Of a DNA stretch of 35,231 nucleotides, positions 7,418 to 28,220 are shown piece after piece. Under the pieces are notes generated by a model. It saw nothing but the letters and a program-made list of their open reading frames with translations. It made no database searches and was not told the origin of the DNA. The DNA is taken from positions 1 through 35,231 of IMG/VR virus record IMGVR_UViG_3300027798_002719. One strand, given 5' to 3'. How positions within the stretch are numbered: the first letter of the stretch is position 1; each line of letters starts with the position of its first letter. Both the position numbers and the translations under genes were made by a program. The DNA is from a virus (taxonomy: Duplodnaviria; Caudoviricetes).

Positions 7418-9115
7418 TTAAACGGCTATACCTGCGTTCTTCTTTACTTGTGCTAGTTCGTCAGTTGGTTCTTGTTCGACGGGCTGTGGTTGTGTGGCAA
7501 CTACTGGAGCCGGAGCAACTGGTTTTTCTTTTGCAGGTACAGGATTAGCAACTGGCTTCACCGGTGCAGTTATGGTTGGCTCAGGTAATTCAGTACTTGC
7601 GGTATTTTCTAACTTAGAAACATCGGTTAAGTTCTTTAACAAACCGCCAATCTCAACAACATTGCGGGCCGCAGTATCTTGTACATATGAACGTAATTGT
7701 ACAAACAGCGATTTATCATTTTTTACACGTTTTGCTTTTTCAGTTTTTGGATATCCATAAACTAGTAATTTGTAATTAGCGCCTTCCATGTTTAACACTG
7801 GAACTAGATCATAATTTTGCAATGCTTCATATAGAGCAGGCCCAAACTCTAATTCAGTATAGGCTTTCTTGGCACTAGGACTAATAATAACTAGTCGAAT
7901 TTCTTCTCCTAGTGTAGCATGGTGAACTACGCCCTTGGTAACTGTAGTGACAAAATCATATTCTTCAGAGTCATCTGACCCGGCAAGTTTACGCTTAATT
8001 TCTTTATAGATATAGTTATATGCTTTCTTAGTACCATGTAAGTAGTTATATGCTCTAACCTGTGATATTTTAGCACTACGTTCAACTTGGCTCATTGGTT
8101 TATAGTTAGCTGGTATAGGTTCGCCTTTCTTTGGAGCAGGAGGCGGCGGCGCTTTAAAGAATTTACGTATCTCTTCCGGGATACCAAAACCAACTGTACT
8201 TGTAAAGAAATTATTAATATGATCAAATTCATAACCACTTACAGCACCAATATGTTTAACTGTAGCTGTCTTGATGCTTAACAATCTTTCCTTCTTTCCG
8301 TTAACTGCAATCCATAAATCTGCCTTTGTACTATGCTGTGCTTCGGAAGTTGCGCCGTCTGCTGTGACTTCAATCATATCTCCGTTGGCAGCATTTTGTA
8401 TTTTTTCCAATGCCGTCTTTACATTGCTAGATTCGTTTACATAAGTAGCACAGTCCATATACAGTCTATAAATCTCTTTAGCCTTGTCGTATTGTAAAAA
8501 TTCTTGTGGCTGCTGTGCGCTCATTTGTAGAGCTTTAAAATCATTACCGCTGAGTATAATTTTTAATTGTAATTCTTTATCGTAGGCCTTTGTCTTAATT
8601 ATAGTACTAGTTAAATTTTGTACATTGTGGAAAATATCCGGCCCGGTAATAACATCGCCATGCCGTTCAAATTTTGTAACAACAGCAACAGCCATAATAC
8701 CTTCTGCTACGTTACCCTTGTTCCACCATTTACTATTAGTGGCTTCGCCGGTGCCACTAACTTTTTGTTTGATATCTTTGGTTTTTTCTATTTGATTAAG
8801 TCTATATGAATTACCGTCTTCTGCAGGCAATGGTAATGTTTTTAGTATTGTTACTTGTTCTAGACTTGCTACTTCTTTTTTATCTGTACCAGTTGGATTC
8901 CATACTTTTTCAAGCATGTCAGCTACTTGTGGTTTAAATGTAACTGTTTTAACAGTTTTAGGAGTTGTCGTAGTTTTATCAATTGTAACTTGGATTTCTG
9001 ATCTGTTTCTAATTAGATCAACTATATTACGATAGTAATTACTGTTTCTCGCCGCAAGAGTATTAGGGTCGATGGTTTCTTCGGAAATAAGGTGTTTAAA
9101 GTCAGCAAATCGCAT
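7418..9115 (-). CDS. large late protein with putative PD-(D/E)XK nuclease motif; probable internal virion protein
   Basis: GNVAEG...KADLWI...LLSIK pattern; N-terminus MRFADFKHLISEE; Pro/Ala-rich linker; C-terminus LAQVKKNAGI; TATAAATA at 9123..9130. Confidence 0.55.
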   Translation of the reverse strand: MRFADFKHLISEETIDPNTLAARNSNYYRNIVDLIRNRSEIQVTIDKTTTTPKTVKTVTFKPQVADMLEKVWNPTGTDKKEVASLEQVTILKTLPLPAEDGNSYRLNQIEKTKDIKQKVSGTGEATNSKWWNKGNVAEGIMAVAVVTKFERHGDVITGPDIFHNVQNLTSTIIKTKAYDKELQLKIILSGNDFKALQMSAQQPQEFLQYDKAKEIYRLYMDCATYVNESSNVKTALEKIQNAANGDMIEVTADGATSEAQHSTKADLWIAVNGKKERLLSIKTATVKHIGAVSGYEFDHINNFFTSTVGFGIPEEIRKFFKAPPPPAPKKGEPIPANYKPMSQVERSAKISQVRAYNYLHGTKKAYNYIYKEIKRKLAGSDDSEEYDFVTTVTKGVVHHATLGEEIRLVIISPSAKKAYTELEFGPALYEALQNYDLVPVLNMEGANYKLLVYGYPKTEKAKRVKNDKSLFVQLRSYVQDTAARNVVEIGGLLKNLTDVSKLENTASTELPEPTITAPVKPVANPVPAKEKPVAPAPVVATQPQPVEQEPTDELAQVKKNAGIAV

Positions 9116-9125
9116 AGTACAATAT

Positions 9126-9806
9126 TTATACTATTTCCGGGAACAGACATTCCTGGATAAAGTGTTGTACATCTTCCTCACTTAGCCCTAAACTGACCAT
9201 TACCCGCGGTGTATGGGGGTTGCATTTCTGATTTTGTGCGTAGTAGTTCTGCGCTAGTGTAGTATCTATTGCGGTGTTGTTTGTTTCAGAGACTGTGCTT
9301 AAATAGTGTGCAACAGTAGTTCTTGCTAGATTTGTAATTTGTTCTAGTTCTTCTGGATCTTGTACGTTGCCAGCGGCTACCATGCTTCCACTGAATATGT
9401 TAGTGGCCCACTCAGGTAAAGCACGTTCTTTGCGCCATTCTAGTTTGGCAACTTCATCGTGGAACCACTGCATCATAGGATGGTCAGCATCGCCTGCTTT
9501 TGAGTAATCGTGAAAACAGCCTGTGATCTTGTTCTTACCAGCAATAACATCAAAACCGTAAATCGGTGCTGGATTGTGAATGTGTGGAAAGATACAACAG
9601 TGCATCATCCATAGTCCTTTGCTTTCCCTAGCGTCCACTACATCAACGTGTGCCCTTCGATATGATTCGCTAGTCCATACACGATTGACCCAACCTGGTT
9701 GATTAAAGCGATCCATACCTGGCTCAAATATTTCCATGCCGGTTGCATCAAAACTTTCTTCTAACAGGGTTTGTATTTCAATCAATGTATCCCAGACTTT
9801 ACTCAT
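9126..9806 (-). CDS. ferredoxin-dependent bilin reductase (PcyX/PcyA-like)
   Basis: YRRAH, MMHCCIFP, PIYGFDVI, LPEWATNIFS and QKCNPHT motifs; adjacent to heme oxygenase. Confidence 0.88.
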   Translation of the reverse strand: MSKVWDTLIEIQTLLEESFDATGMEIFEPGMDRFNQPGWVNRVWTSESYRRAHVDVVDARESKGLWMMHCCIFPHIHNPAPIYGFDVIAGKNKITGCFHDYSKAGDADHPMMQWFHDEVAKLEWRKERALPEWATNIFSGSMVAAGNVQDPEELEQITNLARTTVAHYLSTVSETNNTAIDTTLAQNYYAQNQKCNPHTPRVMVSLGLSEEDVQHFIQECLFPEIV

Positions 9807-10347
9807 TGGGTACCAACGTCATCATTTCTTCAAATAATTTACCAGCATACCCGAAGCATACAATTGCTTCATCGGCTAAACTGTCATCTAATTTAGCACG
9901 TAGAATATTTTTAATAGTATCCGGTTCGTCGCCGAACTGATACATACGACCAGCACCTGGAACACGTTTAGCGATCATTTGTCCTCCAGATAAATCACCG
10001 AAGTGCCTAACATATAAATGTGCTAGTAACTTTTTAGGATCATCTTTAATGCTAAGAATGTATTCAATATATTCTTTAACTACTGGACATATATATGGTT
10101 GGTCGTTATCGTTGCCCCATAATTCTATAAAGTCTTCTAATATAGCAGGAGCTCTTCGAATAGCAGGGTAGTCACTCATCAAACCGTGTGGCATAGCACA
10201 TACTTCAAGTATTTCATAACACGGGTGCTGATTCTTAAGGAATGTTGCGTATAATTTAGGATCAATTTTGCCCGAAAATAAAACTTTTACAAACGGTTTA
10301 GTCTCTGCAGATTTGTGTGCTTCGTGCGTTAGATCTTTTAGGCTCAT
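9799..10347 (-). CDS. heme oxygenase (biliverdin-producing)
   Basis: LKDLTHEAHKSAE proximal His; AHLYVRHFGDLSGGQMI distal motif. Confidence 0.93.
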   Translation of the reverse strand: MSLKDLTHEAHKSAETKPFVKVLFSGKIDPKLYATFLKNQHPCYEILEVCAMPHGLMSDYPAIRRAPAILEDFIELWGNDNDQPYICPVVKEYIEYILSIKDDPKKLLAHLYVRHFGDLSGGQMIAKRVPGAGRMYQFGDEPDTIKNILRAKLDDSLADEAIVCFGYAGKLFEEMMTLVPNE

Positions 10348-10646
10348 TCTTCTTCCAATTTAATTTGTAATGGATATCCGTTAGTGCGGGATTGTGTAGT
10401 TGCCTCAACTGCTTTAGCTTCAGCAATTTCAAAACTATATATACCGGCAACACCGCTTCCAGTTTCATGTACAGTCAGCATGATGTCATGTGCTGTTTCA
10501 TGTGTATGTTTAAAGATCTCAATTAGTAAAGAAATTACAAACTCCATCGGAGTTGATTCGTCGTTTAGCAAAATAACTTTCCAGCGTTTTGGCTCGGATA
10601 CTGTTACTTTAATTTTTTCATCTAATTGGATATCAGTCGTTGACAT
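10344..10646 (-). CDS. clpS: ATP-dependent Clp protease adaptor
   Basis: WKVILLNDESTPMEFV, IMLTVHETG, YSFEIAEAK and YPLQ motifs; start moved to ATG 10646. Confidence 0.93.
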   Translation of the reverse strand: MSTTDIQLDEKIKVTVSEPKRWKVILLNDESTPMEFVISLLIEIFKHTHETAHDIMLTVHETGSGVAGIYSFEIAEAKAVEATTQSRTNGYPLQIKLEEE

Positions 10647-10664
10647 TATGTTCTCTTTCAAAGT

Positions 10665-10682
10665 GGGGGAGTTTCCTCCCCC
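10665..10682 (-). terminator. GC hairpin between hsp20 and clpS (terminator or 5' UTR stem)
   Basis: GGGGGAG-GAAA-CTCCCCC, followed only by ACTTT. Confidence 0.45.
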
Positions 10683-10688
10683 GGTTTA

Positions 10689-11114
10689 TTATTTAATCTC
10701 GATTTGACGAGGCTTCAATGCTTCTGGCACAAGACGCCGAATGTCAATTTGTAACATTCCGTTTTCTACCTTTGCACCTCGAACTTCCATGTACTCAGCA
10801 AGAGTAAATGTCTGTTCAAAATCGCGAGCTGCCAATCCACGATGCAAATACTCGATCCCAACATCTACGTTAGGACGATTCTTAATACCACGGATCGTCA
10901 GTTGGTCTTGATCCACTTCTACAGTGACTTCTTCTTTGGAGAAGCCTGCCACAGCAACTTCAATACCATAACTGTCATCACTATATTTTACAATATTATG
11001 TGGAGGATAGTTACCATTTTGGTGATGTGGCGCAGTAAAGTAGCGATCAAACCCTACTAGTGCTTTGCTCAGTTGTGCTAGAGCGGCTGTGTCAATTGTT
11101 CTTAATTGTGTCAT
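10689..11114 (-). CDS. small heat-shock protein Hsp20 (IbpA-like)
   Basis: NYPPHNI, EVAVAGF, YLHRGLAARDF and ENGML motifs. Confidence 0.95.
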   Translation of the reverse strand: MTQLRTIDTAALAQLSKALVGFDRYFTAPHHQNGNYPPHNIVKYSDDSYGIEVAVAGFSKEEVTVEVDQDQLTIRGIKNRPNVDVGIEYLHRGLAARDFEQTFTLAEYMEVRGAKVENGMLQIDIRRLVPEALKPRQIEIK

Positions 11115-11165
11115 TTTAGATCTCCTTATAGCAAGAACAGTTGTAGGACCCCGAAGGCATCCTAC
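11115..11165 (-). promoter_or_regulatory. ROSE-like RNA thermometer, hsp20 5' UTR
   Basis: Upstream hairpin, then UUCUUGCU pairing with the SD AGGAGA. Confidence 0.7.
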
Positions 11166-11179
11166 TTGTTTACATTATA

Positions 11180-13081
11180 TTACTTCTTTTCTGTAGGGTC
11201 AACTTCTTTGAAGCTAGCGTCTACAGTTTGTTCGCCTGAAGCATCGGCGTTTGATTTTGCTTGTTCAGCGGCTTGCTTTTTGGCAAACACTGAACTTGCG
11301 CTCTCAAATAGTTTTGAAACAGCTTCGTTAATCTTTTCTACATCTTCACCAGATACTGCTTCGGTTAGACTTGATTTAGCTGTTTCGTATGCTGTCTTTT
11401 CTTCTTCAGTTAATTGATCTTTAAATTCTTCAAAATCTTTATTAACTGAGTGTGCAGTACCTTCAGCTTGGTTACGTGCATTGATTAATTCTGCGGCTTT
11501 CTTATCTGACTCTGCATTTTCTTCAGCTTCTTGTACCATGCGTTGGATTTCAGCTTCAGTCAATCCACTATCAGATTTGATAGTAATCTTATTTTCTTTG
11601 CCAGTGTTTTTATCCTTGGCACTTACGTTAAGAATACCGTTGGCATCAATATCTAAGGTAACTTCAATTTGTGGTGTGCCACGCATTGCCGGAGCGATAC
11701 CTTCAAGATTGAATTCGCCTAGTAGTTTGTTGTACTTAAACAGTTCACGTTCACCTTGTGCAACTTTGATAGTTACAGCTGGTTGATTGTCTTCTGCTGT
11801 CGAGAACGTCTGTGAGTGTTTTGTTGGGATAGTCGTGTTCTTACCAATCAACTTGGTAAACACACCGCCCATTGTTTCAATGCCCAGTGTTAATGGAGTA
11901 ACGTCAAGTAACAACACGTCTGTCTTATCGCCTGATAATACAGCGCCTTGTATAGCGGCACCAGCGGCAACTGCTTCGTCTGGGTTTACATCTTTACGTG
12001 GAGCCTTGCCAAACAGTTTCTCAACTGCTTCTTGCACTTTGGGCATACGTGTTTGTCCACCAACTAAGATAACTTCGTCAATGTCTGCGGCAGTTACTTT
12101 AGCATCCTTCATGGCAATCTTACATGGCTCGATTGAACGCTCGATTAGTTTGTCAACCATTTGTTCAAACTTAGCACGAGTAATAGTTACATTCAAATGC
12201 TTAGGACCACTTGCATCTGCTGTGATATATGGCAAGTTGACTGCTGTTTGTTGTGTGCTCGACAGTTCAATCTTGGCCTTTTCAGCAGAGTCTTTCAAGC
12301 GTTGCAATGCTAACATATCTTGTTTAAGATCGATGCCGCTTTCCTTCTTGAACTCTTCAACTAGGTGATCCATGATAACTTGGTCAAAGTCTTCACCGCC
12401 TAGGAATGTGTCACCGTTTGTTGATAAAACTTCAATTTGCTTGTCGCCATCAATGTTGGCAATTTCAATAATAGAGATATCAAATGTACCACCGCCCAAG
12501 TCGTATACCGCAATCTTGCGATCACGCTTGTCTTGTTTGTCTACACCGTAGGCCAGTGCGGCGGCGGTTGGCTCGTTAATAATACGTAGCACTTCTAAGC
12601 CAGCGATACGCCCTGCATCTTTAGTTGCTTGACGCTGGCTATCATTAAAGTAGGCAGGAACTGTAATTACAGCCTGTGTTACTTCTTTACCTAGATAGTC
12701 TTCAGCAGTCTTTTTCATTTTGCGAAGTACTTCAGCTGACACTTGTTGTGGCGCTAGTTTTTCTCCATTTGCCTCAATCCATGCATCACCATTGTCTGCT
12801 CGGACAATACCGTAAGGCATCAAGTCAATGTCTTTTTGCACTTCCTTCTCGTCAAACTTACGTCCAATAAGGCGCTTGCTTGCGTAGATAGTATTCTTTG
12901 GATTTGTGACTGCTTGTCGTTTTGCTGTTGCACCTACTAAGATTTCGTCTTTAGTATATGCAATGATTGATGGTGTTGTTCTAGCACCTTCGCTGTTTTC
13001 AATTACTTTAGCAATTCCATTTTCTAAGATTGCTACACAGCTATTTGTTGTACCTAAATCGATACCGATGATTTTGCTCAT
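11180..13081 (-). CDS. dnaK: chaperone DnaK (Hsp70)
   Basis: [17 protein letters not shown] and [11 protein letters not shown] signatures; full length, 633 aa. Confidence 0.98.
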
Positions 13082-13135
13082 ATTGTTCTCCTTTAATTAA
13101 GCAAGAATATTGTAAACCCTTTACGGCGTCTACAA
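13082..13135 (-). promoter_or_regulatory. ROSE-like RNA thermometer, dnaK 5' UTR
   Basis: Upstream hairpin, then UUCUUGCUU pairing with AAGGAGAA; TAAATA at 13139..13144. Confidence 0.65.
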
Positions 13136-13141
13136 TTTTAT

Positions 13142-13432
13142 TTATCCCGAGATAATCTCTTCGTTAAAAATATTTGACCATTTTTTAAGTTTTTCTATTT
13201 TGGCTAGTTTTGCGGATTCTAACGTTTCTTCGTTTATAACCCCCATGTTTAGCAGTATGTCTACCATAGCTAACAAGTCTCCTAGTTCTTCTTCTAGGTG
13301 TTCACAGTTAGTTTTGGGCTTGCCCGGCTTTAAATTATCTAGTCCAAACCTATGACATTTACTAACTGCTTGTATTACTTCTGCACATTCTTCACTTAGA
13401 ATGTTCATTACTTCTCTTTCTCGATTATTCAT
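13142..13432 (-). CDS. MazG-like NTP pyrophosphohydrolase
   Basis: EECAE...EELGD metal-binding motif. Confidence 0.8.
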   Translation of the reverse strand: MNNREREVMNILSEECAEVIQAVSKCHRFGLDNLKPGKPKTNCEHLEEELGDLLAMVDILLNMGVINEETLESAKLAKIEKLKKWSNIFNEEIISG

Positions 13433-13435
13433 ATA

Positions 13436-14020
13436 TTACCTTTGATTTGCAAATGGTGCGATATAATCGCCTGCGCTTGTTGTGCTAGTTCGTAATGTGT
13501 TATAAACATTTTGAATGCCCACTGCTTGATTCCAAGCATCTTGCAATGCGTGGTGAGCTGTTACTGGCGGACGTTGTGGATTAATACCTAAGTCGAATGC
13601 TGTACGCACATCACGCACTTCCCAGAATTTCCAAGGAACTGCACGATTAACTTTTTTAAATACATGTTCACAAATTACAATATCGAAACAACTGCCGTTG
13701 GACCAAACTCTTTTAGCACCCCAACAAAATTTATACAGTTGTTCAAACGCATCTCGAATATGTATTCTATCGTCCGTATTAAACGCTTCTTCTTGGGCTT
13801 CTTTACTTTGATTGGCCCACCAAGCAATCGTATCGTCATTGGTAACTAATCCAATTTCGTCACAACTATCAAGATCAACTCGTACATAAAACGGAGTCAT
13901 TGATGGCTCTTGAGCTTCTCTACCAAACGGATCAAATTTTACAGCGCCTATGGTAAGAATGGCGGCATCCGTAGATGTCGCCAATGTTTCTAAGTCAATC
14001 ATAATATCTGTATTTGCCAT
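13436..14020 (-). CDS. DEDDh 3'-5' exonuclease (Rv2179c-like)
   Basis: DIMIDLET, WSNGSCFD, RDVRT and HHALQDA motifs. Confidence 0.88.
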   Translation of the reverse strand: MANTDIMIDLETLATSTDAAILTIGAVKFDPFGREAQEPSMTPFYVRVDLDSCDEIGLVTNDDTIAWWANQSKEAQEEAFNTDDRIHIRDAFEQLYKFCWGAKRVWSNGSCFDIVICEHVFKKVNRAVPWKFWEVRDVRTAFDLGINPQRPPVTAHHALQDAWNQAVGIQNVYNTLRTSTTSAGDYIAPFANQR

Positions 14021-14048
14021 GTAAGCTCTTTCTTTATTGTGAACTTAC

Positions 14049-14077
14049 ATTGTAACAGATTTATAATTCTATGTCAA
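14049..14077 (-). promoter_or_regulatory. sigma70-like promoter
   Basis: TTGACA-17 nt-TACAAT. Confidence 0.7.
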
Positions 14078-14307
14078 TACATTTTCTTAGGTAAACTTTC
14101 TTTTTCGAGCTTCTTGCGCCAACGAGCTCGGGCCGCACCTTTTTTACGTTTGCGTTCTGTCGTTGGTTTTTCGTAAAATTCTTTGGCACGTAATATGTCC
14201 AACGTTCCAGCTTCCTCGATTTTCTTTTTAAATCGTCGTAACGCTGAATTTATATTTTCACCGTCTTTAACAGTAACACCTGTTCCGACTTTCTTATTCT
14301 GAATCAT
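14074..14307 (-). CDS. rpsU: ribosomal protein bS21 homolog
   Basis: VKDGENINSALRRFKKK...KEFYEKPTTERKRKK; start placed at the ATG 8 nt after GAGGA. Confidence 0.92.
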   Translation of the reverse strand: MIQNKKVGTGVTVKDGENINSALRRFKKKIEEAGTLDILRAKEFYEKPTTERKRKKGAARARWRKKLEKESLPKKMY

Positions 14308-14710
14308 CTGCATCATCCTCTTCTTCGTCTTGGTTTTGAATTTGTTCTACAATGAAATCTAAATCCCAAATTCTATTTTTAGATATCAAATTGTATGGCG
14401 TAATTTCATCGTTAGTTATATAGTGTGCATTAGGTTGCGATATCATAAATGTAATAAACTGTTTAGTAACCGGATCACAATTGTCAACGTCAATTATAAC
14501 TACATCAGTTTGGTGACAAATACTCAGTAACCAACTAGTATCGTTATCGTTTTGATCATATATGAACACATTCAAATCATCTATGCTTTTGCTTAGAATT
14601 GCTTGAAACTGCTGTTTAACATGATTAGACGGTTTAACTAACAAGTAACTTAGTGTTAGGTTAAAAAGTTTATCAGGCGGCGTTATTACTGTTATTTTTC
14701 CTAAGTTCAT
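14294..14710 (-). CDS. hypothetical protein
   Basis: 138-aa ORF in the operon, acidic tail. Confidence 0.7.
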   Translation of the reverse strand: MNLGKITVITPPDKLFNLTLSYLLVKPSNHVKQQFQAILSKSIDDLNVFIYDQNDNDTSWLLSICHQTDVVIIDVDNCDPVTKQFITFMISQPNAHYITNDEITPYNLISKNRIWDLDFIVEQIQNQDEEEDDADDSE

Positions 14711-14945
14711 AAATCCTACTTACAAAGTATTCTATTTTGTCTGTTGTATAGTTACTAAACTTAGGACCTTTATTCTTTGTTTCATCAACAAACTTAGCCA
14801 ATTCTGGATCAGTTGTTGCATCTACTTCTAAAGTATCAAAAACTTTCGCTCCATACAACTTATATAATTCATCTCTTGGTCGAGCATTTGATCTACTAAT
14901 TATCTTAGACCAAATTGTTTCTTCACCTTGCTCGGCGTTTTGCAC
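14673..14945 (-). CDS. probable -1 frameshift extension of 14951..16174
   Basis: Weak GTG start; frame is open back to the A9G run at 15005..15014. Confidence 0.6.
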   Translation of the reverse strand: MQNAEQGEETIWSKIISRSNARPRDELYKLYGAKVFDTLEVDATTDPELAKFVDETKNKGPKFSNYTTDKIEYFVSRIYELRKNNSNNAA

Positions 14946-14950
14946 ATATC

Positions 14951-16174
14951 CTACGATCGGTTCTTGACTTGAATGTGTCTCGTCTCGTCCTTCGTCATAT
15001 AAGTCTTTTTTTTTGAATCTTCTGGTTCAATTACTTCTGTAAAGTCTGGCTTAATTCTATCGCCTGTTACTGCTGAATAGTTTTCAGGGATATATTTTTG
15101 GGCCTCTGCTTCTATAATTTCTTGTTTTTCTTGTTGTATTGCCTGTTCAGCCTCTTCAATCATCTTGTTCCATTGTTCAAGCGGTATGTCTTCTACCGTT
15201 TCTACTGGCTTTTCCTCCGTTGCTGTTATATCACCTCCTAGTGCAGTCAACGGTGTTTCGCTTGGAACTTCTTCTGTGTGTGTTTGTTTGATTTCTTCTT
15301 CAGGAATATATTCTTGTGGTTGGGGCACAAAATCATTGATGCTTACAGGTACTGGTTCTGTTACGGGAGTTTCAGTATGTGGTACTGTATTATGTAAAAG
15401 ATGTTTGTCATCCTCTTCCCTTTTCCAACCAAATGTCATTTGTGCGGCCAACAGCATAATAACTGCTAATGGATCAAATACAATAACAATAAGGATAATA
15501 ATCCATGTTACTGCTCGTTCCAGCATGTTTTCATCTGCGCCATGGTCGCCGTAGATAAACTTGGCAATGTATTTTATTGGCCCAACTTCGGCCTCGACCT
15601 TGCGTACTTCTGCCGCGATTGGAGCACGCTCTTGGCTAACTGCGGCAATAGTTTTCTGTTCGGCTGTGATCTCAGACTGAAGCCTTGCACGTTCCTTTTG
15701 CTGACTACGTCTAATTTGAACTGCTTTCTCGGCACCTTTTTCATCACTGCTTCGGCCCATGACCTGGTCCACAGCTTCATCCATCTGTTTAAGAGCTTTA
15801 CGGTTTGCATCTATATTGTCTTTGCTTGTTTTAATCTTTTCGTCATAGATAGCAATCTTACTTTGAACATCGCCACTTACTAGATTTTGGTCGTTGTGTG
15901 CTTTTGAAAGGAATCCAAAAATACCCATCGAGGTAATAATCATTAACACAACTACTGAAATGATCATGTAGTATTTTATAAAACGTGGAGCACGTTCCCA
16001 GTTAGCTTTGAGCCAGCTAGCACATACTAGTTTGCCAATCTCTAGGGCTGATCCCATAATAATAATTGGAATTACTGCCGCAGAGAATATTGCGGTCAAA
16101 CCTACTACTGAATAGTAGATTGCGACCGCAGATATTATTAATCCAGTAAGAAGTAGTAACCAGGCTAAAATCAT
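14951..16174 (-). CDS. multi-TM coiled-coil membrane protein with acidic tail
   Basis: Three N-terminal TM helices, TSMGIFGFLSKAH, coiled coil, EVGPIKYIA, IVFDPLA. Confidence 0.8.
   Translation of the reverse strand: MILAWLLLLTGLIISAVAIYYSVVGLTAIFSAAVIPIIIMGSALEIGKLVCASWLKANWERAPRFIKYYMIISVVVLMIITSMGIFGFLSKAHNDQNLVSGDVQSKIAIYDEKIKTSKDNIDANRKALKQMDEAVDQVMGRSSDEKGAEKAVQIRRSQQKERARLQSEITAEQKTIAAVSQERAPIAAEVRKVEAEVGPIKYIAKFIYGDHGADENMLERAVTWIIILIVIVFDPLAVIMLLAAQMTFGWKREEDDKHLLHNTVPHTETPVTEPVPVSINDFVPQPQEYIPEEEIKQTHTEEVPSETPLTALGGDITATEEKPVETVEDIPLEQWNKMIEEAEQAIQQEKQEIIEAEAQKYIPENYSAVTGDRIKPDFTEVIEPEDSKKKTYMTKDETRHIQVKNRS
15005..15018 (-). other. slippery site ATTCAAAAAAAAAG (contains A_AAA_AAG)
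   Basis: In-frame TCA AAA AAA AAG; the -1 frame reads through to 14673. Confidence 0.7.
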
Positions 16175-16186
16175 CAGTGCCTTATA

Positions 16187-16825
16187 TTATTCTGCGTCGG
16201 CCGCAGAGTCAAGGGTTACAAGTTCAGTACCGTCAATTTGAACAACAGTGATGTCTGCTAAAATGTCTGCGGCAGTGTCTGGCGCGGTAACTGTGATTGA
16301 TAGTTGGTTGTTATTTGGAACGCTTGACACTATGCGTGTTGATGATGTTGTACTATCACGGAAGCCACGCACAACTGCATCTTCAATAGCAAGTGCTAGT
16401 GTAGTGATTGCTACAGTAGCTACGTTTGTAGCCAACCCAGTTTCTTGTACGTTAAGTGCTTTCTGAGCATCAATAATGCCTGCTGTACGATCGTACTTAA
16501 CTGTGAATGCTAAACTTGTAGCAACATCGTCGCCAACTGTTTCTGCACCACCGGCTGCGATACCAGTTTCAATATCTAAAATTTGGCAATCTGCTAAACC
16601 TGTTAAACGATTAATAACATTTCGGAAACGAATGTTACCACGTGCTCGTGCTTTTGCTTTAACTAGGGTAGTTGGCAATGTTGCAAAACTATCTCCTGAG
16701 TTTGGTGTAATTCCACCGTTATCGTTACCGTCTGCGGTAGGATATGTGCCGGTGTTTGCTACCCAAACTACACGAAATAGTCCTGGGTTTAATTGGTTAA
16801 TGTCTTGTTGGAATCCTGATGGCAT
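16187..16825 (-). CDS. probable virion structural protein
   Basis: A/T/G/V-rich composition; AAGGAG RBS; TAAATA at 16849..16854. Confidence 0.55.
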   Translation of the reverse strand: MPSGFQQDINQLNPGLFRVVWVANTGTYPTADGNDNGGITPNSGDSFATLPTTLVKAKARARGNIRFRNVINRLTGLADCQILDIETGIAAGGAETVGDDVATSLAFTVKYDRTAGIIDAQKALNVQETGLATNVATVAITTLALAIEDAVVRGFRDSTTSSTRIVSSVPNNNQLSITVTAPDTAADILADITVVQIDGTELVTLDSAADAE

Positions 16826-16862
16826 CTTTGTGCTCCTTAATTATCTAATATTTATGCTTATT

Positions 16863-17171
16863 TCACTTAAAGAAAATTAATGCCATTAGAACTGCTTGGA
16901 TAATAAAGCCAAATCCAATAGTAACAATGTTTAGCATGTCTTTTTGTACTGTAGCCTTAAGAAACAGCAAAGTTAAGCCTGTCCAAACTAACAATACTAG
17001 ATCAACTCCGGGTAATCGATCAGTTAGCCCGCTCATCATTGCCAATAAACTAGGAATCGTAGCGGCATGTAATACAATAGCCGCCATCCAACCTAGTGTC
17101 TCAGCTGAAATATGTGAGAACTTGTTTGCTACAAAATCTTTAAATTCAGTAATGCTTACGAACTGGTTCAT
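16863..17171 (-). CDS. small 3-TM membrane protein
   Basis: Three hydrophobic segments; ATGA overlap with the hydrolase gene. Confidence 0.7.
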   Translation of the reverse strand: MNQFVSITEFKDFVANKFSHISAETLGWMAAIVLHAATIPSLLAMMSGLTDRLPGVDLVLLVWTGLTLLFLKATVQKDMLNIVTIGFGFIIQAVLMALIFFK

Positions 17172-17722
17172 TTGTCTTCCTTCTTTGCTGTGTAAAAAAT
17201 ATGGTTACCAATACTGCCTATCTTCTCTAGTTGCCAGCGTGGGTTTACATAGTTAGCATGATAATACAGTGCGTCTTTCAGAATGTCAAGTTTAAAACCT
17301 TCCAAAAGTACTTTCTTGGCTACTCTGTAGCTTTCATCGTATGCGGCTTGATTAACAGGGCGTGATTTAGCGGCGCTGTCACATGCCCATGAAAATTGGC
17401 ACACGACTCGCTCCATTATAACATTTTTCTGATAAACCACACCGCAAACATCTTTGCCAAACTGTCCCTTGGCTACTCTATTCATAGTTACTTGTGCCAC
17501 AGCAACTTTACCTTCAAACGGCTCATGACCCGCTTCACGATAGATATTAATTGCTAGACAATCCAATTGCTTTTCACGAGTTTGAATCGTAACAACATCT
17601 GGTGCGTTATAGATAGTCGATTCTTTCAGCCTCGACATTTTGTTTTGTGTTATTGATGTAACAAAGATAGTTACAGCAATTAGTCCTGCCAGTAGGGCAG
17701 ACAATCTCATTACTTTTTCCAT
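17168..17722 (-). CDS. SleB/CwlJ-like cell wall hydrolase (Hydrolase_2)
   Basis: CLAINIYREAGHE, AVAQVTMNRV, CQFSW, YYHANYVNPRW and IGNHIFY motifs; N-terminal TM; start at ATG 17722 after AAGGAG. Confidence 0.93.
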   Translation of the reverse strand: MEKVMRLSALLAGLIAVTIFVTSITQNKMSRLKESTIYNAPDVVTIQTREKQLDCLAINIYREAGHEPFEGKVAVAQVTMNRVAKGQFGKDVCGVVYQKNVIMERVVCQFSWACDSAAKSRPVNQAAYDESYRVAKKVLLEGFKLDILKDALYYHANYVNPRWQLEKIGSIGNHIFYTAKKEDK

Positions 17723-17744
17723 AGTGTTTTCTCCTTTCACTTGG

Positions 17745-17975
17745 TGTGATCAAAACAATCACATTACATTAAGGGAGTTAACTTCACGAGGCTCTGATGA
17801 TGAACCCTGGGTTCGTGTAGTTGTCTCCATTAGCCTCCGACTTCTCATAAAAGTCAGTACCTTTGGCGAGCATGGCTTCCCGAATCTCACGGGTTTCTCA
17901 TTGGCCAAGACTCGCGGGTCTAATCAAAATAGTACTACTTTTAACTAGACCTACTATCTTGTTTCTTTGCGAAAC
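17745..17975 (-). ncRNA. long structured leader RNA upstream of the cell wall hydrolase
   Basis: About 230 nt of non-coding sequence with at least seven stems and an internally repeated motif. Confidence 0.6.
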
Positions 17976-18022
17976 GTATAATATATAGTTCATATGTCCA
18001 AAATATCCCATATAATGTGGGG

Positions 18023-18418
18023 TTATCGTCTCATTTTGGCAATATCAACTGCTTCTTCATTACTGAAGACTGGTACAGCATTACTCTTGTGCATAGTAGC
18101 AATGCCTTTAACCATAGTACCTGTGTAAACTTTTGGGGCCTTGAGCGTTGCATTACCACCAGTATCAACACTTTTAAGATGTGCAGTGGTGTTTCGGCCT
18201 TCTGGTATAGTCAACTTATAAGTAGAGCTTAACGGAGCCGCAGTCATAGCACGATTGCGTTTTCGATCTTCAGCTTCTACATTATGCTTCTTGAGAAGTT
18301 CTTTCCAACTTGCGTCCAAATCTCTAGACTTTCTTGCTTGTTCTGCACTAGCAAATTTCTTTTTACCTTTTTGCTTGCCAGTGGTACTGAGCCACGGACC
18401 TTCTAAATGCATACTCAA
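18023..18418 (-). CDS. T4-like phage hypothetical protein
   Basis: C-terminal YTG...GIATMHKSNAVPV motif, recalled from T4-like phage proteins; basic; start is TTG 18418 or ATG 18412. Confidence 0.75.
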   Translation of the reverse strand: MSMHLEGPWLSTTGKQKGKKKFASAEQARKSRDLDASWKELLKKHNVEAEDRKRNRAMTAAPLSSTYKLTIPEGRNTTAHLKSVDTGGNATLKAPKVYTGTMVKGIATMHKSNAVPVFSNEEAVDIAKMRR

Positions 18419-18449
18419 AATAATCTCCAAAAGTTATAACAATACAGTT

Positions 18450-18478
18450 ATTATACTGTCTAACTTTAGATAAGTCAA
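18450..18478 (-). promoter_or_regulatory. sigma70-like promoter
   Basis: TTGACT-17 nt-TATAAT. Confidence 0.7.
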
Positions 18479-18484
18479 TGATTG

Positions 18485-18811
18485 TTATACTCGAAAACTT
18501 TCCCCGCAACCGCAACGGTCACGTTCGTTTGGATTGATGAAATCAAAACCTTCATTTAGTCCGTTGCGGACCCAATCCATTGTTAAGCCATTTAGATAGG
18601 CTAGACTTTTGGCATCTACTAGCACTACAAAATCTTTTTGGGCAAAATTAGTAACGCCGGCTTCTGCGGTGTACTCATCTACATATTCTATAGTGTATGC
18701 TAGTCCACTACATCCTGTAGTTCTTACACCTAGTCGAATGCCTGCGCCTTTACCACGACGCTCTAAATTCTGCTTGATTTTTTTATAAGCTGTGTCGGTT
18801 ACGGTAATCAT
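18485..18811 (-). CDS. iscA: Fe-S cluster A-type carrier
   Basis: TTGCSGLAY and CGCGESF motifs. Confidence 0.95.
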   Translation of the reverse strand: MITVTDTAYKKIKQNLERRGKGAGIRLGVRTTGCSGLAYTIEYVDEYTAEAGVTNFAQKDFVVLVDAKSLAYLNGLTMDWVRNGLNEGFDFINPNERDRCGCGESFRV

Positions 18812-19166
18812 TTACGGCCGCTTTGATAGCATCTTCTGCCAATATACTGCAATGTATCTTTACAGGAGGTAAGGCTAGCTCTTCGGCAATTTGACTATTT
18901 TTAAGATTAACAGCATCATCAATATGCATGCCTTTAACCCATTCTGTAACAAGACTTGAACTGGCAATTGCTGAACCGCAGCCATAAGTTTTAAATTTGG
19001 CATCTGTAATAACACCATCTTCGCCTACTTTTATTTGCAATTTCATCACATCGCCGCAAGCAGGGGCACCAACCATACCAGTACCAATACTAGGATCACT
19101 CTTATCAAAAGATCCAACGTTCCTGGGATTTTCATAGTGGTCGATGACCTTGTCGCTGTATGCCAT
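18783..19166 (-). CDS. iscU: Fe-S cluster scaffold
   Basis: DHYENPRNVG, APACGD, GCGSAIASS and LPPVKIHCS motifs. Confidence 0.97.
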   Translation of the reverse strand: MAYSDKVIDHYENPRNVGSFDKSDPSIGTGMVGAPACGDVMKLQIKVGEDGVITDAKFKTYGCGSAIASSSLVTEWVKGMHIDDAVNLKNSQIAEELALPPVKIHCSILAEDAIKAAVNDYRNRHSL

Positions 19167-19181
19167 ACTGTATTTATATTA

Positions 19182-19376
19182 TTATTTTACTTCTTTACGA
19201 GCGTTTTTAACTGCGGTAACATCGTTACGAGTTTCTTTGCACAACTTGGCCAAATCTTGACAATGTTTACGAACACGGGTGCCGGCGGCGCCAACTTCCT
19301 TGTCATAAAACTTTTCAAAGTCTGCTTCCATTGCTTCTACGATTGCTGTGAATTCTGCGTGTTTGTTTGTAGCCAT
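19182..19376 (-). CDS. histone H1-like (Hc1-type) small protein
   Basis: DFEKFYDK...AAGTRVRK...LAKLCKETR pattern. Confidence 0.7.
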   Translation of the reverse strand: MATNKHAEFTAIVEAMEADFEKFYDKEVGAAGTRVRKHCQDLAKLCKETRNDVTAVKNARKEVK

Positions 19377-19416
19377 TTTATTAATCCTTTATATGAAGTA
19401 CAGAGTACTTATACCT

Positions 19417-19445
19417 AGTGTACAGGGGTTAAAAATAAATGTCAA
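19417..19445 (-). promoter_or_regulatory. sigma70-like promoter
   Basis: TTGACA-17 nt-TACACT. Confidence 0.65.
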
Positions 19446-19693
19446 CCAACATTGGCGAATACAGTTGTGCTACTCGAACTGATACTTTGGCCGTCTGCGA
19501 TAATGTCGGCCTCTCTTGCCATTGGCTTATCGTTTACAAAAACGGTTGTAGATCCTTGAGCAACAACAAGACCTGTAGCAGTAATTGAGCCTTCATGGGC
19601 TACTTTTTTATTTTCGATATAAGTGTCAATTGATCCAGAAATGATCATGTGTTGACTCGCCGAATCGATATCACAACGTGCTACGCCTGGCAT
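19442..19693 (-). CDS. PAAR-like spike-tip protein
   Basis: MPGVAR start; repeated GS.TVFVN.KP.AR..D units; ends SSTTVFAN. Confidence 0.8.
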   Translation of the reverse strand: MPGVARCDIDSASQHMIISGSIDTYIENKKVAHEGSITATGLVVAQGSTTVFVNDKPMAREADIIADGQSISSSSTTVFANVG

Positions 19694-20436
19694 TATCCAG
19701 GTCCTAATATTGTTTTAGAAGCAAGTGCCGATGCTTCGGCAGCCGCCTTCTTGACTGTTTCTGCTGGTTTAGTTATTCCAATCCAACCTTTAACTGTGGT
19801 AAACGCATTTGCAGCCGCAGTACCAATAAAACTTTCTGATATCATATTTCCAACCGACGTTGTGGTCCACGAAACAGCCGATCCAATACTTTGTTCAACT
19901 AGATTAGCGGCGGCCATTGCCGCTTTGATTGGACCAACATTTGTTACAGTGTCTTGAATTGTTGTAACAAGACCAGCTGGTTCAACGACTGTTGGTTCTA
20001 TCCCAGATCTTACTAGCGCCGCATTAGTTGTTTGTTGTTGGAATTTATTATTTTTAATAGTCTCAGCTAACTGCACTTGACCGGTAGTTACACCTGCGGC
20101 AACCTGTGATGATACTTGTGCTAGTCCGACTTGCATGCCAGATAATTTTGCGGCAATTTCAGATTGTGTTTCCATCATACTTGCCATCATTGCTGACATG
20201 TTATTAAGAGCTTTTCCCTGAGCGGCTAGTACAGCGATTGGAGCACCTGGAGTGCCAAGTCCGGCCGCACTCCATTGAGCAATGTTAAATGAATTCATTG
20301 TGGTCATCTGTGTAGTTACAGCAAGCGTTAATTTATCAACCGCGGCCGCGATAGCAACAAGTTCAATGGTTTGATCAATAGTCGTAACTTGACCATTTGT
20401 CTGACCACTAAACGTACCAATTATTTGAACACCCAT
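19693..20436 (-). CDS. probable tail/baseplate-associated protein
   Basis: A/T/S/Q-rich helical protein translationally coupled to the PAAR gene; TAAATA at 20460..20465. Confidence 0.5.
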   Translation of the reverse strand: MGVQIIGTFSGQTNGQVTTIDQTIELVAIAAAVDKLTLAVTTQMTTMNSFNIAQWSAAGLGTPGAPIAVLAAQGKALNNMSAMMASMMETQSEIAAKLSGMQVGLAQVSSQVAAGVTTGQVQLAETIKNNKFQQQTTNAALVRSGIEPTVVEPAGLVTTIQDTVTNVGPIKAAMAAANLVEQSIGSAVSWTTTSVGNMISESFIGTAAANAFTTVKGWIGITKPAETVKKAAAEASALASKTILGPG

Positions 20437-20462
20437 AGCTTTATCCTAATATATGCTAGTAT

Positions 20463-20753
20463 TTATGCTAGAGCAATTCCGGTGGTGCTTTCAATAAATT
20501 GCTTGGCAAACGATGCATCTGTTGCTTCCGCTACTGTAACTGTGGATTTTTGTAGTTTGATTTCTTTATCTGGACTCACTGTAAACAAGTAAGGCATTAG
20601 TCCTGGACCTTTTGGGCCCATACCAATTACTTGCGGATTTTTTAATGTGTAATGTAATGGCCCGTCTTCTACTAATTTGGCGACAATTTCTTCGCCGCTT
20701 GTTAGTTTAAGTGTAACTACTTCACCTTCCGAGAAACCCTTTGAAATAAACAT
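20463..20753 (-). CDS. small beta-barrel (Sm/SH3-like) phage protein
   Basis: VVTLKLTSGEEIVAK...TTGI pattern, recalled from T4-like phage proteins. Confidence 0.65.
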   Translation of the reverse strand: MFISKGFSEGEVVTLKLTSGEEIVAKLVEDGPLHYTLKNPQVIGMGPKGPGLMPYLFTVSPDKEIKLQKSTVTVAEATDASFAKQFIESTTGIALA

Positions 20754-20754
20754 G

Positions 20755-20997
20755 TTATACCTTTAGTGTGTTGAAAAATTCTTCGTCTTTGTCAGCTAAG
20801 CCTTGAAAGCCGCCGGGTAAGAGAACCCCATTCTTGAAAATTTGTGGAACTGAACGAAGCCCTTGTTCCATGAGAAACTCTCTTGCGCCAGAGTTTTCCT
20901 CCATCTTAATTATCTTAAATGGAATATCTTTACTTTCTAATAGTGCTTTTGCTCTGTCACAAAACGGACAGTTGTTTTTTGAATATACTGTGATCAT
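20755..20997 (-). CDS. glutaredoxin
   Basis: CPFC, SVPQIF and GGF motifs; downstream of nrdB. Confidence 0.95.
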   Translation of the reverse strand: MITVYSKNNCPFCDRAKALLESKDIPFKIIKMEENSGAREFLMEQGLRSVPQIFKNGVLLPGGFQGLADKDEEFFNTLKV

Positions 20998-21008
20998 CTT
21001 TTCTCTTT

Positions 21009-22109
21009 TTATAGTGCGGGTAATTCGTCATACTCGATTGCATCACTCATTATGCCAATTACATAATTTGTGCTTTCATTTTCTTGTAATGCTGTTTGTT
21101 TCTTACTCGTATCTACGTGTTTATTAAACCACGGGATAGGGGTAGATTTAGGTGCTGGGTTGTTATACTTAATGCCAATATCTTTAAGTGCTCCAACTGC
21201 GGTGTAGTCCACGAAGTCTTTTAGAATGTTGGCATTTAATCCGATCACTGGCCCTTTATTAAACAAATAGTTTGCCCAGTCCTTCTCTTCACGGATAACA
21301 TCCATGTATAAATTATACACTTCTTGTTCGCATTCTGCTTTCACTTCGGCAAACCTGTTATCTTCTTTAACCACTTGATTAATCAAATAAGCGGTCCAAC
21401 CTTTGTGCAATAATTCGTCTTGTAAAATTAAACTGATGATATTGCCATTACCCATAAAAATACGATTCTCTACCATTGCAAGACTTGTAGCAAAGCTAAC
21501 CATAAAACGGAAAGCTTCTAATGCATAACTTGCATGTAATGCCATCCATATTGCTCGAATGTATTCTTTTTCCGGAATAGTTTCGCCTAACTGCTTACGA
21601 CAGTTAACCATGTGCAATGCTTCGTAGTAGTCGCCAACGCTTGAAGCCATGTCCACAATTTCTTTAGTGTCATGGATAGTATTGAACACATCCTTGGGCA
21701 CATTATAGATATTTCGGATAATATGGCTGTAGCTCTTTGAGTGAATGTTAGTTTCAAAGAATGTCCAGTTGTACACCAATGCTTCTAGTTCTGGCAGGCT
21801 GATTACTGGCATAAAGATTTGGCTTGGGCCACGACCCTGTAAACTGTCCAATGCTGTCTGACGTAACAAGTTGCTGGTAAAGATATGCTTGACAGCATCA
21901 CTGGCATCTTTAAAGTCATTGCTGTCTTTCGTTAGGCTAATCTCTTCAGGTTGCCAAAAGAAGCCACGTGCTGTTGCTTCAAAGTCTGCAATTTTTTTGT
22001 ATTTTACTTCTTCAAATCGTTGTATGGTCACAGGACCAGCTGGGTCCAGAAACATCTTGCGATTGAGATAGTCTGTCTTGGTGTTTAAATTATATTGTTG
22101 TTTTGACAT
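21009..22109 (-). CDS. nrdB: class Ia ribonucleotide reductase beta subunit
   Basis: FFWQPEE, LDSLQGR, ETNIHSKSY, LEAFRF and DELLH motifs; start moved to ATG 22109. Confidence 0.96.
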   Translation of the reverse strand: MSKQQYNLNTKTDYLNRKMFLDPAGPVTIQRFEEVKYKKIADFEATARGFFWQPEEISLTKDSNDFKDASDAVKHIFTSNLLRQTALDSLQGRGPSQIFMPVISLPELEALVYNWTFFETNIHSKSYSHIIRNIYNVPKDVFNTIHDTKEIVDMASSVGDYYEALHMVNCRKQLGETIPEKEYIRAIWMALHASYALEAFRFMVSFATSLAMVENRIFMGNGNIISLILQDELLHKGWTAYLINQVVKEDNRFAEVKAECEQEVYNLYMDVIREEKDWANYLFNKGPVIGLNANILKDFVDYTAVGALKDIGIKYNNPAPKSTPIPWFNKHVDTSKKQTALQENESTNYVIGIMSDAIEYDELPAL

Positions 22110-22110
22110 T

Positions 22111-22767
22111 TTAATATTTTCCTGAAGCAAGTACTATCTTGCAAATGTGTTCTAATCTTTCTATGTGTTCATAGGCACGCCATGGGGTGTTGCCAATGGC
22201 TACCACGCCGTGTCCTTTGATTCCCACTATGTCAAACTTGATGTTGCCTTCACGGTCAAGTCCCAAGTTGTGATGACATGCTTCGCCTAATTCTTCACTG
22301 ATAGGAGCAACATCTCCCACATTGTGTGCTACCTTGGTATAACGATTGAGTTCTGGAAATGCATCACTAACAGTACCTAAGTCAATACCGGCGTGCATGG
22401 CCGCAATACAGTAAGTAGGATGAACATGCACTACCACACGCACATCGTCTTTGTGCTGTCCCAATTCTTTCTGTAGTCCAAAATGCAAAGGCATCTCACC
22501 ACTAGGTTCCAAGTTGCCTGACAAGTCTGTTTGTTCAATGACTTCCCAATTATAGTTAAAAGCACCACTGCCAACACCACTGTTAATTGTTCTCCAGATT
22601 TTAATCTTCTTGAACATCTCTGGTTGCATGTTCTGTTTACGCACACCGCTGGGTGTTACATAAAAATGATCACGATCATGATGTCGTATAGAAATGTTGC
22701 CATCTCTGCTGGTTATCCAATTACGCTTGTAAGCGTCTACTAATATATCACAACAAGTTTCTAACAT
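22111..22767 (-). CDS. class II aldolase/adducin family protein
   Basis: DGNIS, TPSG, PSGEMPLH, HVHP and GHGVV motifs. Confidence 0.9.
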   Translation of the reverse strand: MLETCCDILVDAYKRNWITSRDGNISIRHHDRDHFYVTPSGVRKQNMQPEMFKKIKIWRTINSGVGSGAFNYNWEVIEQTDLSGNLEPSGEMPLHFGLQKELGQHKDDVRVVVHVHPTYCIAAMHAGIDLGTVSDAFPELNRYTKVAHNVGDVAPISEELGEACHHNLGLDREGNIKFDIVGIKGHGVVAIGNTPWRAYEHIERLEHICKIVLASGKY

Positions 22768-27906: not shown

Positions 27907-28200
27907 TTATTTGCCTAATTTAGTTGCACGTTTAGCCATTTTTTCCATTTCGTTTGGCTGTGGAGTACCTTTTTCAACTTGTTTTGCTTTATTGGCTGTT
28001 TTGATAACTAGGCCGTGGCTATCATAACGATCCACAATGGATTTTAACACAGGGTCACTATCCCAACGTGCGGCAAATCTGTCATAGTCTATTGCTGGAG
28101 CACCCATCTTAGCACTAGCGGCAGCTAGTGCTCGCCACGTCATTGTGGCTTCTGAACCTTTACGGTTGGCTGCTGATTGAAGAGCCCTTAGTGTTGCCAC
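27907..28200 (-). CDS. probable -1 frameshift extension of 28221..29207
   Basis: GTG start without an RBS; frame is open back to the A9G run at 28224..28233. Confidence 0.6.
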   Translation of the reverse strand: MATLRALQSAANRKGSEATMTWRALAAASAKMGAPAIDYDRFAARWDSDPVLKSIVDRYDSHGLVIKTANKAKQVEKGTPQPNEMEKMAKRATKLGK

Positions 28201-28220
28201 TAAGGGATCGATTGATTCAT

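Follow-up and report, generated by a model that had tools for sequence, protein, structure and literature searches.

At −1 frameshift sites of the dnaX and insertion-sequence type, an SD-like stimulator lies upstream of the slippery sequence and a stem-loop or pseudoknot lies 3′ of it. The motif A_AAA_AAG, used in phase by E. coli dnaX and the IS3 family, ranks among the top three for −1 shifting in E. coli (PMC4066793). Thermus thermophilus dnaX, which encodes tau and gamma, and IS1447 orfAB carry nine sense-strand A's late in the gene and yield products with a common N-terminus (PMC5009743, PMC1088944, PMC6211511); IS1447 slips both ways, A10 having been found in 8 and A8 in 9 of 52 cDNA clones (PMC6211511). 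Runs of nine A or T are reported to slip efficiently in vivo, a length that matches the 9–10 bp hybrid (PMC5009743), and selection against runs has been described from about nine onward (PMC1088944). With the E. coli polymerase, the A runs examined reportedly induced little slippage, and poly(A) gave no deletions (PMC6260861). In Citrobacter rodentium, transcriptional frameshifting at an A11 run lets the single gene tssM1 specify an inner-membrane protein of two lengths, and it matters that both are made and in which proportion (PMC4256274). In paramyxovirus P/V/W editing, a shared N-terminus is followed by exclusive C-termini in three frames, the default has switched several times, and editing has been lost in some lineages (PMC8204654). 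The lambda gene pair gpG/gpGT is a phage example of a minor, C-terminally extended product (PMC5009743, PMC10885494). Recoding known from phages is nearly always ribosomal and found in genes for structural proteins or tail-assembly chaperones (2397 of 2476 annotated cases; PMC10885494), and transcriptional slippage has been suggested for one Campylobacter phage gene (PMC2853527). In the literature searched, which had subscription papers, bioRxiv supplements and the genome-scale frameshift tables GeneTack and PRFect outside its scope, a demonstrated case of programmed slippage by the polymerase in a gene of a dsDNA phage did not come up, only that one suggestion, nor did any paper on the membrane-protein family or the site described here.

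The locus analyzed here would work like Thermus dnaX, IS1447 and tssM1, and its evolution resembles paramyxovirus P/V/W editing. The window, i.e., the whole stretch of DNA under study (35,231 nucleotides), is a 35-kb virus record of a large freshwater phage, and its source runs are lake metagenomes. On the minus strand, a gene that as encoded specifies a 407-aa protein (14951..16174, read from 16174 to 14951) ends close after the sequence GAT TCA AAA AAA AAG ACT. The codons TCA AAA AAA AAG (S387–K390) contain slip site 1 (15005..15014), nine A's at 15014..15006 followed by a G at 15005. A TGA 12 nt upstream of the run (15027..15029) closes the −1 frame; past this TGA, the −1 frame is open across the run and into a 90-aa ORF, up to a stop at 14675..14673, 113 codons from 15014. 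One extra A (A10) or a −1 shift results in a product of 500 aa, and one A fewer (A8) in a product of 392 aa that is closed by a TGA in the third frame (14995..14997). The sequence-only reading had reported the A9G and the open −1 frame, which we find again in the sequence and in contigs, and its estimate of about 500 aa for the long product agrees with the computed length.

Only two A9 runs are present in the window, at 15014..15006 and at 28233..28225. At the former, contigs of five other runs bridge the nine A's without gaps, and the A9 is therefore not an assembly error; the A10 that had been named as the sign of such an error did not appear. Two of the five are the DNA runs X1 (depth 27.6) and X9 (depth 5.3), with 0 gaps and 0 other letters. 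The other three are the RNA-library runs X15, X16 and X20, whose contigs also span the run as A9 with no indel, but assembled contigs drop minor variants and the depth of X15 tracks that of DNA run X9, so that the RNA-library contigs neither show transcription nor exclude slippage. Among the assembled contigs of the seven runs examined, none had A8 or A10 at site 1. One X17 contig ends exactly at 15014 and one X18 contig at 15023, which is too weak to serve as evidence.

To survey relatives, an unbiased set was composed of the best 80 IMG/VR loci and the window, picked by protein similarity only. It comprised 5 incomplete junctions, 67 with the run and a −1 ORF, 7 with the long-form motif (motif B, see below) in frame, and 2 with another tail. 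The A9G and the −1 ORF are thus both kept in 67 of the 76 complete junctions, as had been proposed for one membrane protein with two alternative C-termini made by programmed recoding, and homologs without the run in which the second ORF starts independently, the opposite outcome that had been considered, did not appear. We conclude that recoding at site 1 is real, conserved and programmed; judged from these sequences, it is very likely that both proteins are made, the short form ending in tail A and the long form in tail B.

The set was then widened with further loci and five cultured phages to 428 loci, of which 385 had a core match and 35 were incomplete, leaving 212 unique junctions; one of the widening patterns required seven A's and motif B, which biases the set toward runs but not toward frame or phase. 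In 105 of these junctions tail A is in frame and tail B lies in the −1 frame (the −1 class). In 18 junctions the order is reversed, with tail B in frame and tail A in +1; five of these were assigned by eye rather than by pattern, and three further reversed junctions (L536, L548 and L551) stand outside the counts. The remainder consists of one three-way junction, 13 tandem junctions (A, then B, in the same frame, lacking a run of eight or more), 14 junctions that have B alone, 3 whose run is combined with other tails, and 58 with other ends. At the three-way junction (L428), known from a single contig, frame 0 stops right after an A8 run, with tail A in −1 and tail B in +1. Three −1 junctions (L272, L283 and L450) have an aberrant short tail of 3, 9 and 34 aa, respectively, and in L272 both motifs lie in the −1 frame. 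Five loci (L481, L491, L497, L561 and L563) combine the same core and an A9 or A10 run with a −1 ORF of 81–151 codons unrelated to tail B; here the slip is apparently reused with other tails.

Of the 120 best-matching database proteins, 117 have tail A as their C-terminus. Longer proteins searched with the alignment of tail B yielded 20 matches, 18 of them with motif B; in 17 of these 18, which are protein sequences only, the motif follows S-K-K-K, and one is tandem. The −1 frame is open in 68 of 68 dereplicated lineages versus a mean chance expectation of 16%, a consistency check, since the class is defined partly by the open frame. On a tree of 135 cores, from which two long cores were left out, at least 12 changes of arrangement are needed versus at least 14 (mean 17.2) for shuffled labels, which argues for an arrangement that is partly inherited yet often switched; recombination (module exchange) could inflate the 12 changes. 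The core itself is present in the cultured phages XacN1, RsoM2USA, RAS14, SCTP-2 and Mosig (the five examined of 15 records), and neither motif B nor a near-end run of eight or more occurs in any of these five. Cultured jumbo and T4-like phages have the core without the slip site. Core homologs in L504 and L505 lie beside ClpX-like genes on contigs binned in a Haliscomenobacter MAG, which are probably phage contigs.

The protein consists of a conserved core, a variable linker and one of the two tails. According to AlphaFold2, hydropathy and the alignment, the core (15416..16174) comprises predicted transmembrane (TM) helices at residues 2–29, 31–57 and 64–94, a helical hairpin at 101–208 and a further TM helix at 215–252; the AlphaFold2 model (pLDDT 73.6, pTM 0.43) accordingly displays three N-terminal TM helices, a hairpin of 100 residues and a fourth TM helix. 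If its N-terminus were inside, the hairpin would be periplasmic and both tails cytoplasmic. The linker (residues 250–386, 15017..15427) is acidic, with 35 D/E and 10 K/R. Tail A consists of 17 frame-0 residues and a TAG (14951..15004) and is under purifying selection: its third codon positions are the most variable (1.39 versus 0.80 and 0.85 bits over 50 junctions), and it is more conserved than the overlapping frame in the −1 and reversed classes alike. Indeed, in the reversed class, the out-of-frame tail A has an identity of 0.56 versus 0.39 for the annotated frame (13 sequences), again with the third positions most variable, and in pairs of sequences the tail A frame has an excess of synonymous changes (such as 6, with 4 non-synonymous, versus 0 and 8). 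These observations indicate that tail A is still used where it is not the default.

Tail B comprises 110 residues in the −1 frame (14673..15005), including the called 90-aa ORF. In its motif B, Y-x-Q-N-x-E-Q ... W (14910..14948), none of the residues Y, Q, N, E, Q and W varies over an alignment of 61 tails. A small helical domain (14688..14879, model pLDDT 70–90) is optional, being found in about two-thirds of the −1 class and missing where tail B has only about 40 aa. The two tails have different conserved motifs, and both motifs are real protein, since 13 relatives have one after the other in a single frame, without a run of eight or more. No ATG, GTG or TTG lies between the run and motif B in 93 of 105 −1 junctions, and the 90-aa ORF is therefore not a separate gene, in line with the earlier view that it has no independent start. 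The GTG at 14945 had been noted for its poorly spaced ribosome-binding site. Its AGGA is indeed only 3 nt away, but the AGGA before the ATG of the next gene, at 14710, has the same spacing, so that this spacing alone proves little. A start at this GTG would, moreover, remove the invariant Tyr of motif B, which lies upstream of it.

We inspected run length, phase and surroundings of site 1 for clues to the mechanism. Over 124 junctions, the run is A9 in 111, A10 in 5, A11 in 1 and A8 in 7, and never shorter; at least nine A's are thus found in 117 of 124 junctions, with all three codon phases represented and a G after the run regardless of phase. The conserved feature, as read from these junctions, is run length and not codon phase. 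Both classes have settled on A9 (98 of 105 in the −1 class, 13 of 18 in the reversed class), and it is the flanking bases that change instead. The A9 is also unlikely to arise by chance in these genomes: five large relatives (1.64 Mb) contain 415 exact A7 and 54 exact A8 runs, but stretches of at least nine A's occur in them only 12 times; slip sites 1 and 2 account for 9 of these, leaving 3 others in 1.64 Mb. No SD-like stimulator is enriched at site 1, the mean anti-SD duplex energy being −2.1 kcal/mol in the last 20 nt and −1.6 and −2.6 kcal/mol further upstream (68 junctions). Stem-loop structure 3′ of site 1 (pseudoknots aside) is likewise absent, with a mean z of +0.09 and 4% of values below −2, and a z of −0.17 in the window.

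Slip site 2 (28221..28233, minus strand) lies at the end of a 328-aa gene (29207..28221), where TC-A9-G is followed by TAA; its A9 occupies 28233..28225, and the −1 frame runs to 27907, for a product of 433 aa. The run of site 2 has 9 or 10 A's in 81 of 81 loci, its last codon being AAG, AAC or AAA, and a −1 ORF more than 100 codons long is present in all of them. A conserved hairpin 3′ of site 2 (28185..28206, z −3.1) has no counterpart at site 1. Its mean z is −3.55 over 42 junctions, 36 of them below −2, with varied stems and a variable distance, the longest stem beginning 1–32 nt after the run. No cultured phage matched the site 2 protein. Locus L526 (G003:C1, ORF ending at 13877) has a reversed site 1 together with a site 2 homolog without an A run at its end, and site 2 is therefore not universal.

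Taken together, the retention of run length rather than phase, the reversed defaults, and the lack of an SD or 3′ stimulator at site 1 favor transcriptional slippage. The sequence-only reading had named this as an alternative, and it is now the better-supported one. We regard such slippage on the A9 run, in either direction, as the probable mechanism, with appreciable room for doubt. The enzyme would probably be that of the host, because the RNA polymerase beta subunit (PF00562) has no match in 5 large relatives, 3 of which are at least 90% complete, although a divergent phage polymerase is possible; Sigma70 r2 is also absent in 5 relatives. By adding or dropping an A on the run, which separates the common membrane core from the two overlapping tails, the polymerase would give rise to the 407-aa protein with tail A and the 500-aa protein with tail B, and as a by-product to a 392-aa protein with neither tail. 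Several observations point the other way: A_AAA_AAG is in phase in 97 of 105 −1 junctions, the run is no longer than A8 in 7 junctions, and a hairpin follows site 2. In addition, the reversed class, whose junctions are known from assemblies only, would require deletions of A's, which counts against the polymerase given the lack of poly(A) deletions reported in PMC6260861.

The alternative that survives best is programmed ribosomal frameshifting, by a −1 tandem slip at A_AAA_AAG or A_AAA_AAA and, for the reversed class, by a +1 or −2 shift on the A's, possibly alongside polymerase slippage. The heptamer is in the zero frame in the window as well as in those 97 junctions, it is strong in E. coli (PMC4066793), A8G variants retain it, and since A_AAA_AAA lies within every phase of A9, −1 ribosomal shifting is possible across the whole −1 class. 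The hairpin 3′ of site 2 fits as well, but the start of its longest stem is not at a fixed spacing from the run. Six A's suffice for the heptamer, yet no junction has only 6–7; a G follows the run in any phase; and the heptamer, which needs six A's and one phase, cannot serve the 18 reversed junctions or the three-way one. That some relatives have swapped their default tail favors the polymerase over the ribosome. A −1 ribosomal frameshift at A_AAA_AAG had been the headline mechanism of the earlier proposal, and in view of the 8–11 A's kept in three phases, the reversed and three-way junctions, and the missing SD and 3′ structure at site 1, we consider it unlikely to be the explanation, albeit one to be taken seriously. 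Both routes may also operate side by side.

Much less probable is phase variation at the DNA level, in which the run mutates at replication and each genome makes one tail. Both defaults exist and alternate on the tree, and 17 database proteins, known as proteins only, carry an in-frame long tail after S-K-K-K. Locus L430, with an A10 run and a core 97% identical to that of an A9 relative, would be the kind of neighbor expected, but it could be a replication or assembly variant. The two classes, however, differ in their flanking bases and not as A9 versus A10, no A8 or A10 contig was seen at site 1 in the seven runs, and the out-of-frame tail is under selection across diverged reversed lineages. 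A shade less probable still is sliding of ribosomes on iterated lysine codons, by which all frames would be entered without a classical slippery site. Such sliding is independent of direction and phase, as are the data, and has been described in E. coli on AAA repeats; it yields little product at A9 or A10, however, and is robust only at A11 (PMC4363877), whereas all but one of the 124 runs are A8–A10. Finally, two separate genes, a decayed gene or an assembly error, for which one might cite the 90-aa ORF listed by gene callers and its GTG with an AGGA spaced as in the next gene, are refuted in the main by the missing start codons, the loss of the invariant Tyr, the relatives with tandem one-frame tails and the A9 in five other runs, and hardly come into consideration.

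Relative to the described systems, site 1, as a candidate for transcriptional slippage, shares with Thermus dnaX and IS1447 the position of nine A's late in a gene with a common N-terminus, but here each outcome has its own conserved tail, amounting to a swap rather than a truncation or plain extension; it is, moreover, a phage gene whose default varies by lineage and whose slippage is predicted from sequence. Like tssM1, the gene would encode an inner-membrane protein in two lengths, yet the short form of TssM merely loses a domain and that case has a narrow distribution, whereas site 1 is kept across a large group of phages. In its exclusive C-termini and switched defaults, the gene also resembles paramyxovirus P/V/W editing, by analogy only, for there an RNA virus polymerase inserts G's at its own signal, and here a dsDNA phage apparently relies on the host enzyme and an A run. 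With E. coli dnaX and the IS3 family it has the in-phase A_AAA_AAG in common; of the features of dnaX-type sites this one is present, and three others (SD, 3′ structure, and a fixed direction and phase) are not, while surplus A's are kept and variants of opposite direction exist. In contrast to the lambda tail-assembly chaperones gpG/gpGT, soluble proteins whose genes lie between those for tail tube and tape measure, the gene encodes a four-TM membrane protein among host-takeover genes (DnaK, bS21 and IscU) and does not lie beside tail tube or tape-measure genes. The four hydrophobic helices, the non-tail neighbors and the lack of a PHROG match agree with the earlier remark that it is not a tail-assembly chaperone.

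Searches for a family or fold gave little. For the window protein, Pfam returned no match over the cut-off (a weak Tetraspanin match below it) and PHROGs no match, with weak spanin or other coiled-coil matches for a few relatives; NCBIfam gave a weak SMC-like match only, PDB sequences coiled coils only, and the ESM Atlas unnamed viral clusters only. A fold search with the core found no PDB match at E 0.001 or better, and in BFVD only uncharacterized phage proteins; with tail B the best Z was 5.6 (rmsd 3.6, 79 aligned), below a meaningful level, along with one uncharacterized phage protein. A supposed resemblance of tail B to a CD1375/XkdX-like domain had no Pfam support. DUF4407 (PF14362), which likewise has TM helices around a coiled coil, does not match the window protein itself; 42 of the 62 cores in the alignment do match it, with E values of at most 0.01 (the best being 2.9e-5), but such scores are common for proteins that combine TM helices and a coiled coil, and it is a weak lead for the family.

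Downstream of the gene lies a minus-strand gene for a 138-aa protein (14294..14710); its first 38 nt, ATG included, are shared with the end of tail B, and bS21 (14074..14316) comes next. In relatives, the tail B stop falls within −45 to +15 nt of the next ATG in 100 of the 112 junctions (of 123) for which that gene was found, and the tail A stop lies 37–310 nt upstream of it. Since the tail B stop abuts the ATG of the next gene, ribosomes on tail B might couple translation to that gene; such coupling is plausible, but tight packing is usual in phage genomes. Of 36 diverse loci, 12 have the small gene together with bS21 as downstream neighbors and 11 a ClpX-like ATPase; in Salicola phage SCTP-2 (L164), ClpX and ClpS adjoin the homolog. 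The neighbors in the window are a cell-wall hydrolase, bS21, an exonuclease, MazG and DnaK. A host-like block on the minus strand (7418..25115) contains ferredoxin-dependent bilin reductase, heme oxygenase, ClpS, Hsp20, DnaK, MazG, bS21, IscA/IscU, Hc1-like, PAAR, glutaredoxin and ribonucleotide reductase genes, with a class II aldolase-like gene between the ribonucleotide reductase subunits. None of the 47 window proteins has a head-gene Pfam match, Rfam finds nothing in the window, and promoter and terminator counts in the window are at chance level. Among plasmid-borne DnaKs, those of Burkholderiales are closest to the DnaK of the window (67–68%), a weak hint at the host. In the bS21 phages of Chen et al. 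2022, as described there, bS21 sits within a terminase/capsid/portal cluster and the host is a Bacteroidetes (PMC9723584), whereas here it lies among chaperone and nucleotide genes, and the phage is not clearly one of those bS21 clades.

What the two forms do can be sketched conditionally. The two would cooperate, in a fixed proportion, within an inner-membrane complex whose tails face the cytoplasm. Our best guess, which we hold to be possible but rather doubtful, is that the protein serves as an anchor in the membrane, each tail having a cytoplasmic partner of its own. For the large group of aquatic phages as a whole (260–380 kb; close relatives of 266–383 kb), a wider picture, to which we give slightly less than even chances, would be that programmed slippage of the host polymerase, on one A9 signal shared by two unrelated genes, produces a membrane protein with mutually exclusive tails, tandem motifs having been split into isoforms and the default flipped about a dozen times. 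This would be a dsDNA-phage counterpart of paramyxovirus P/V/W, with the slip rate also setting translation of the bS21 unit. It follows that the annotation of a very large uncharacterized protein family (at least 8000 candidates scored), as a gene with an orphan ORF beside it, is mistaken. The family's natural series of A9 in three phases, reversed defaults, a three-way junction and run-less tandems is a ready set for separating polymerase from ribosome slippage, and the same series lets one ask why the protein keeps its two motifs mutually exclusive.
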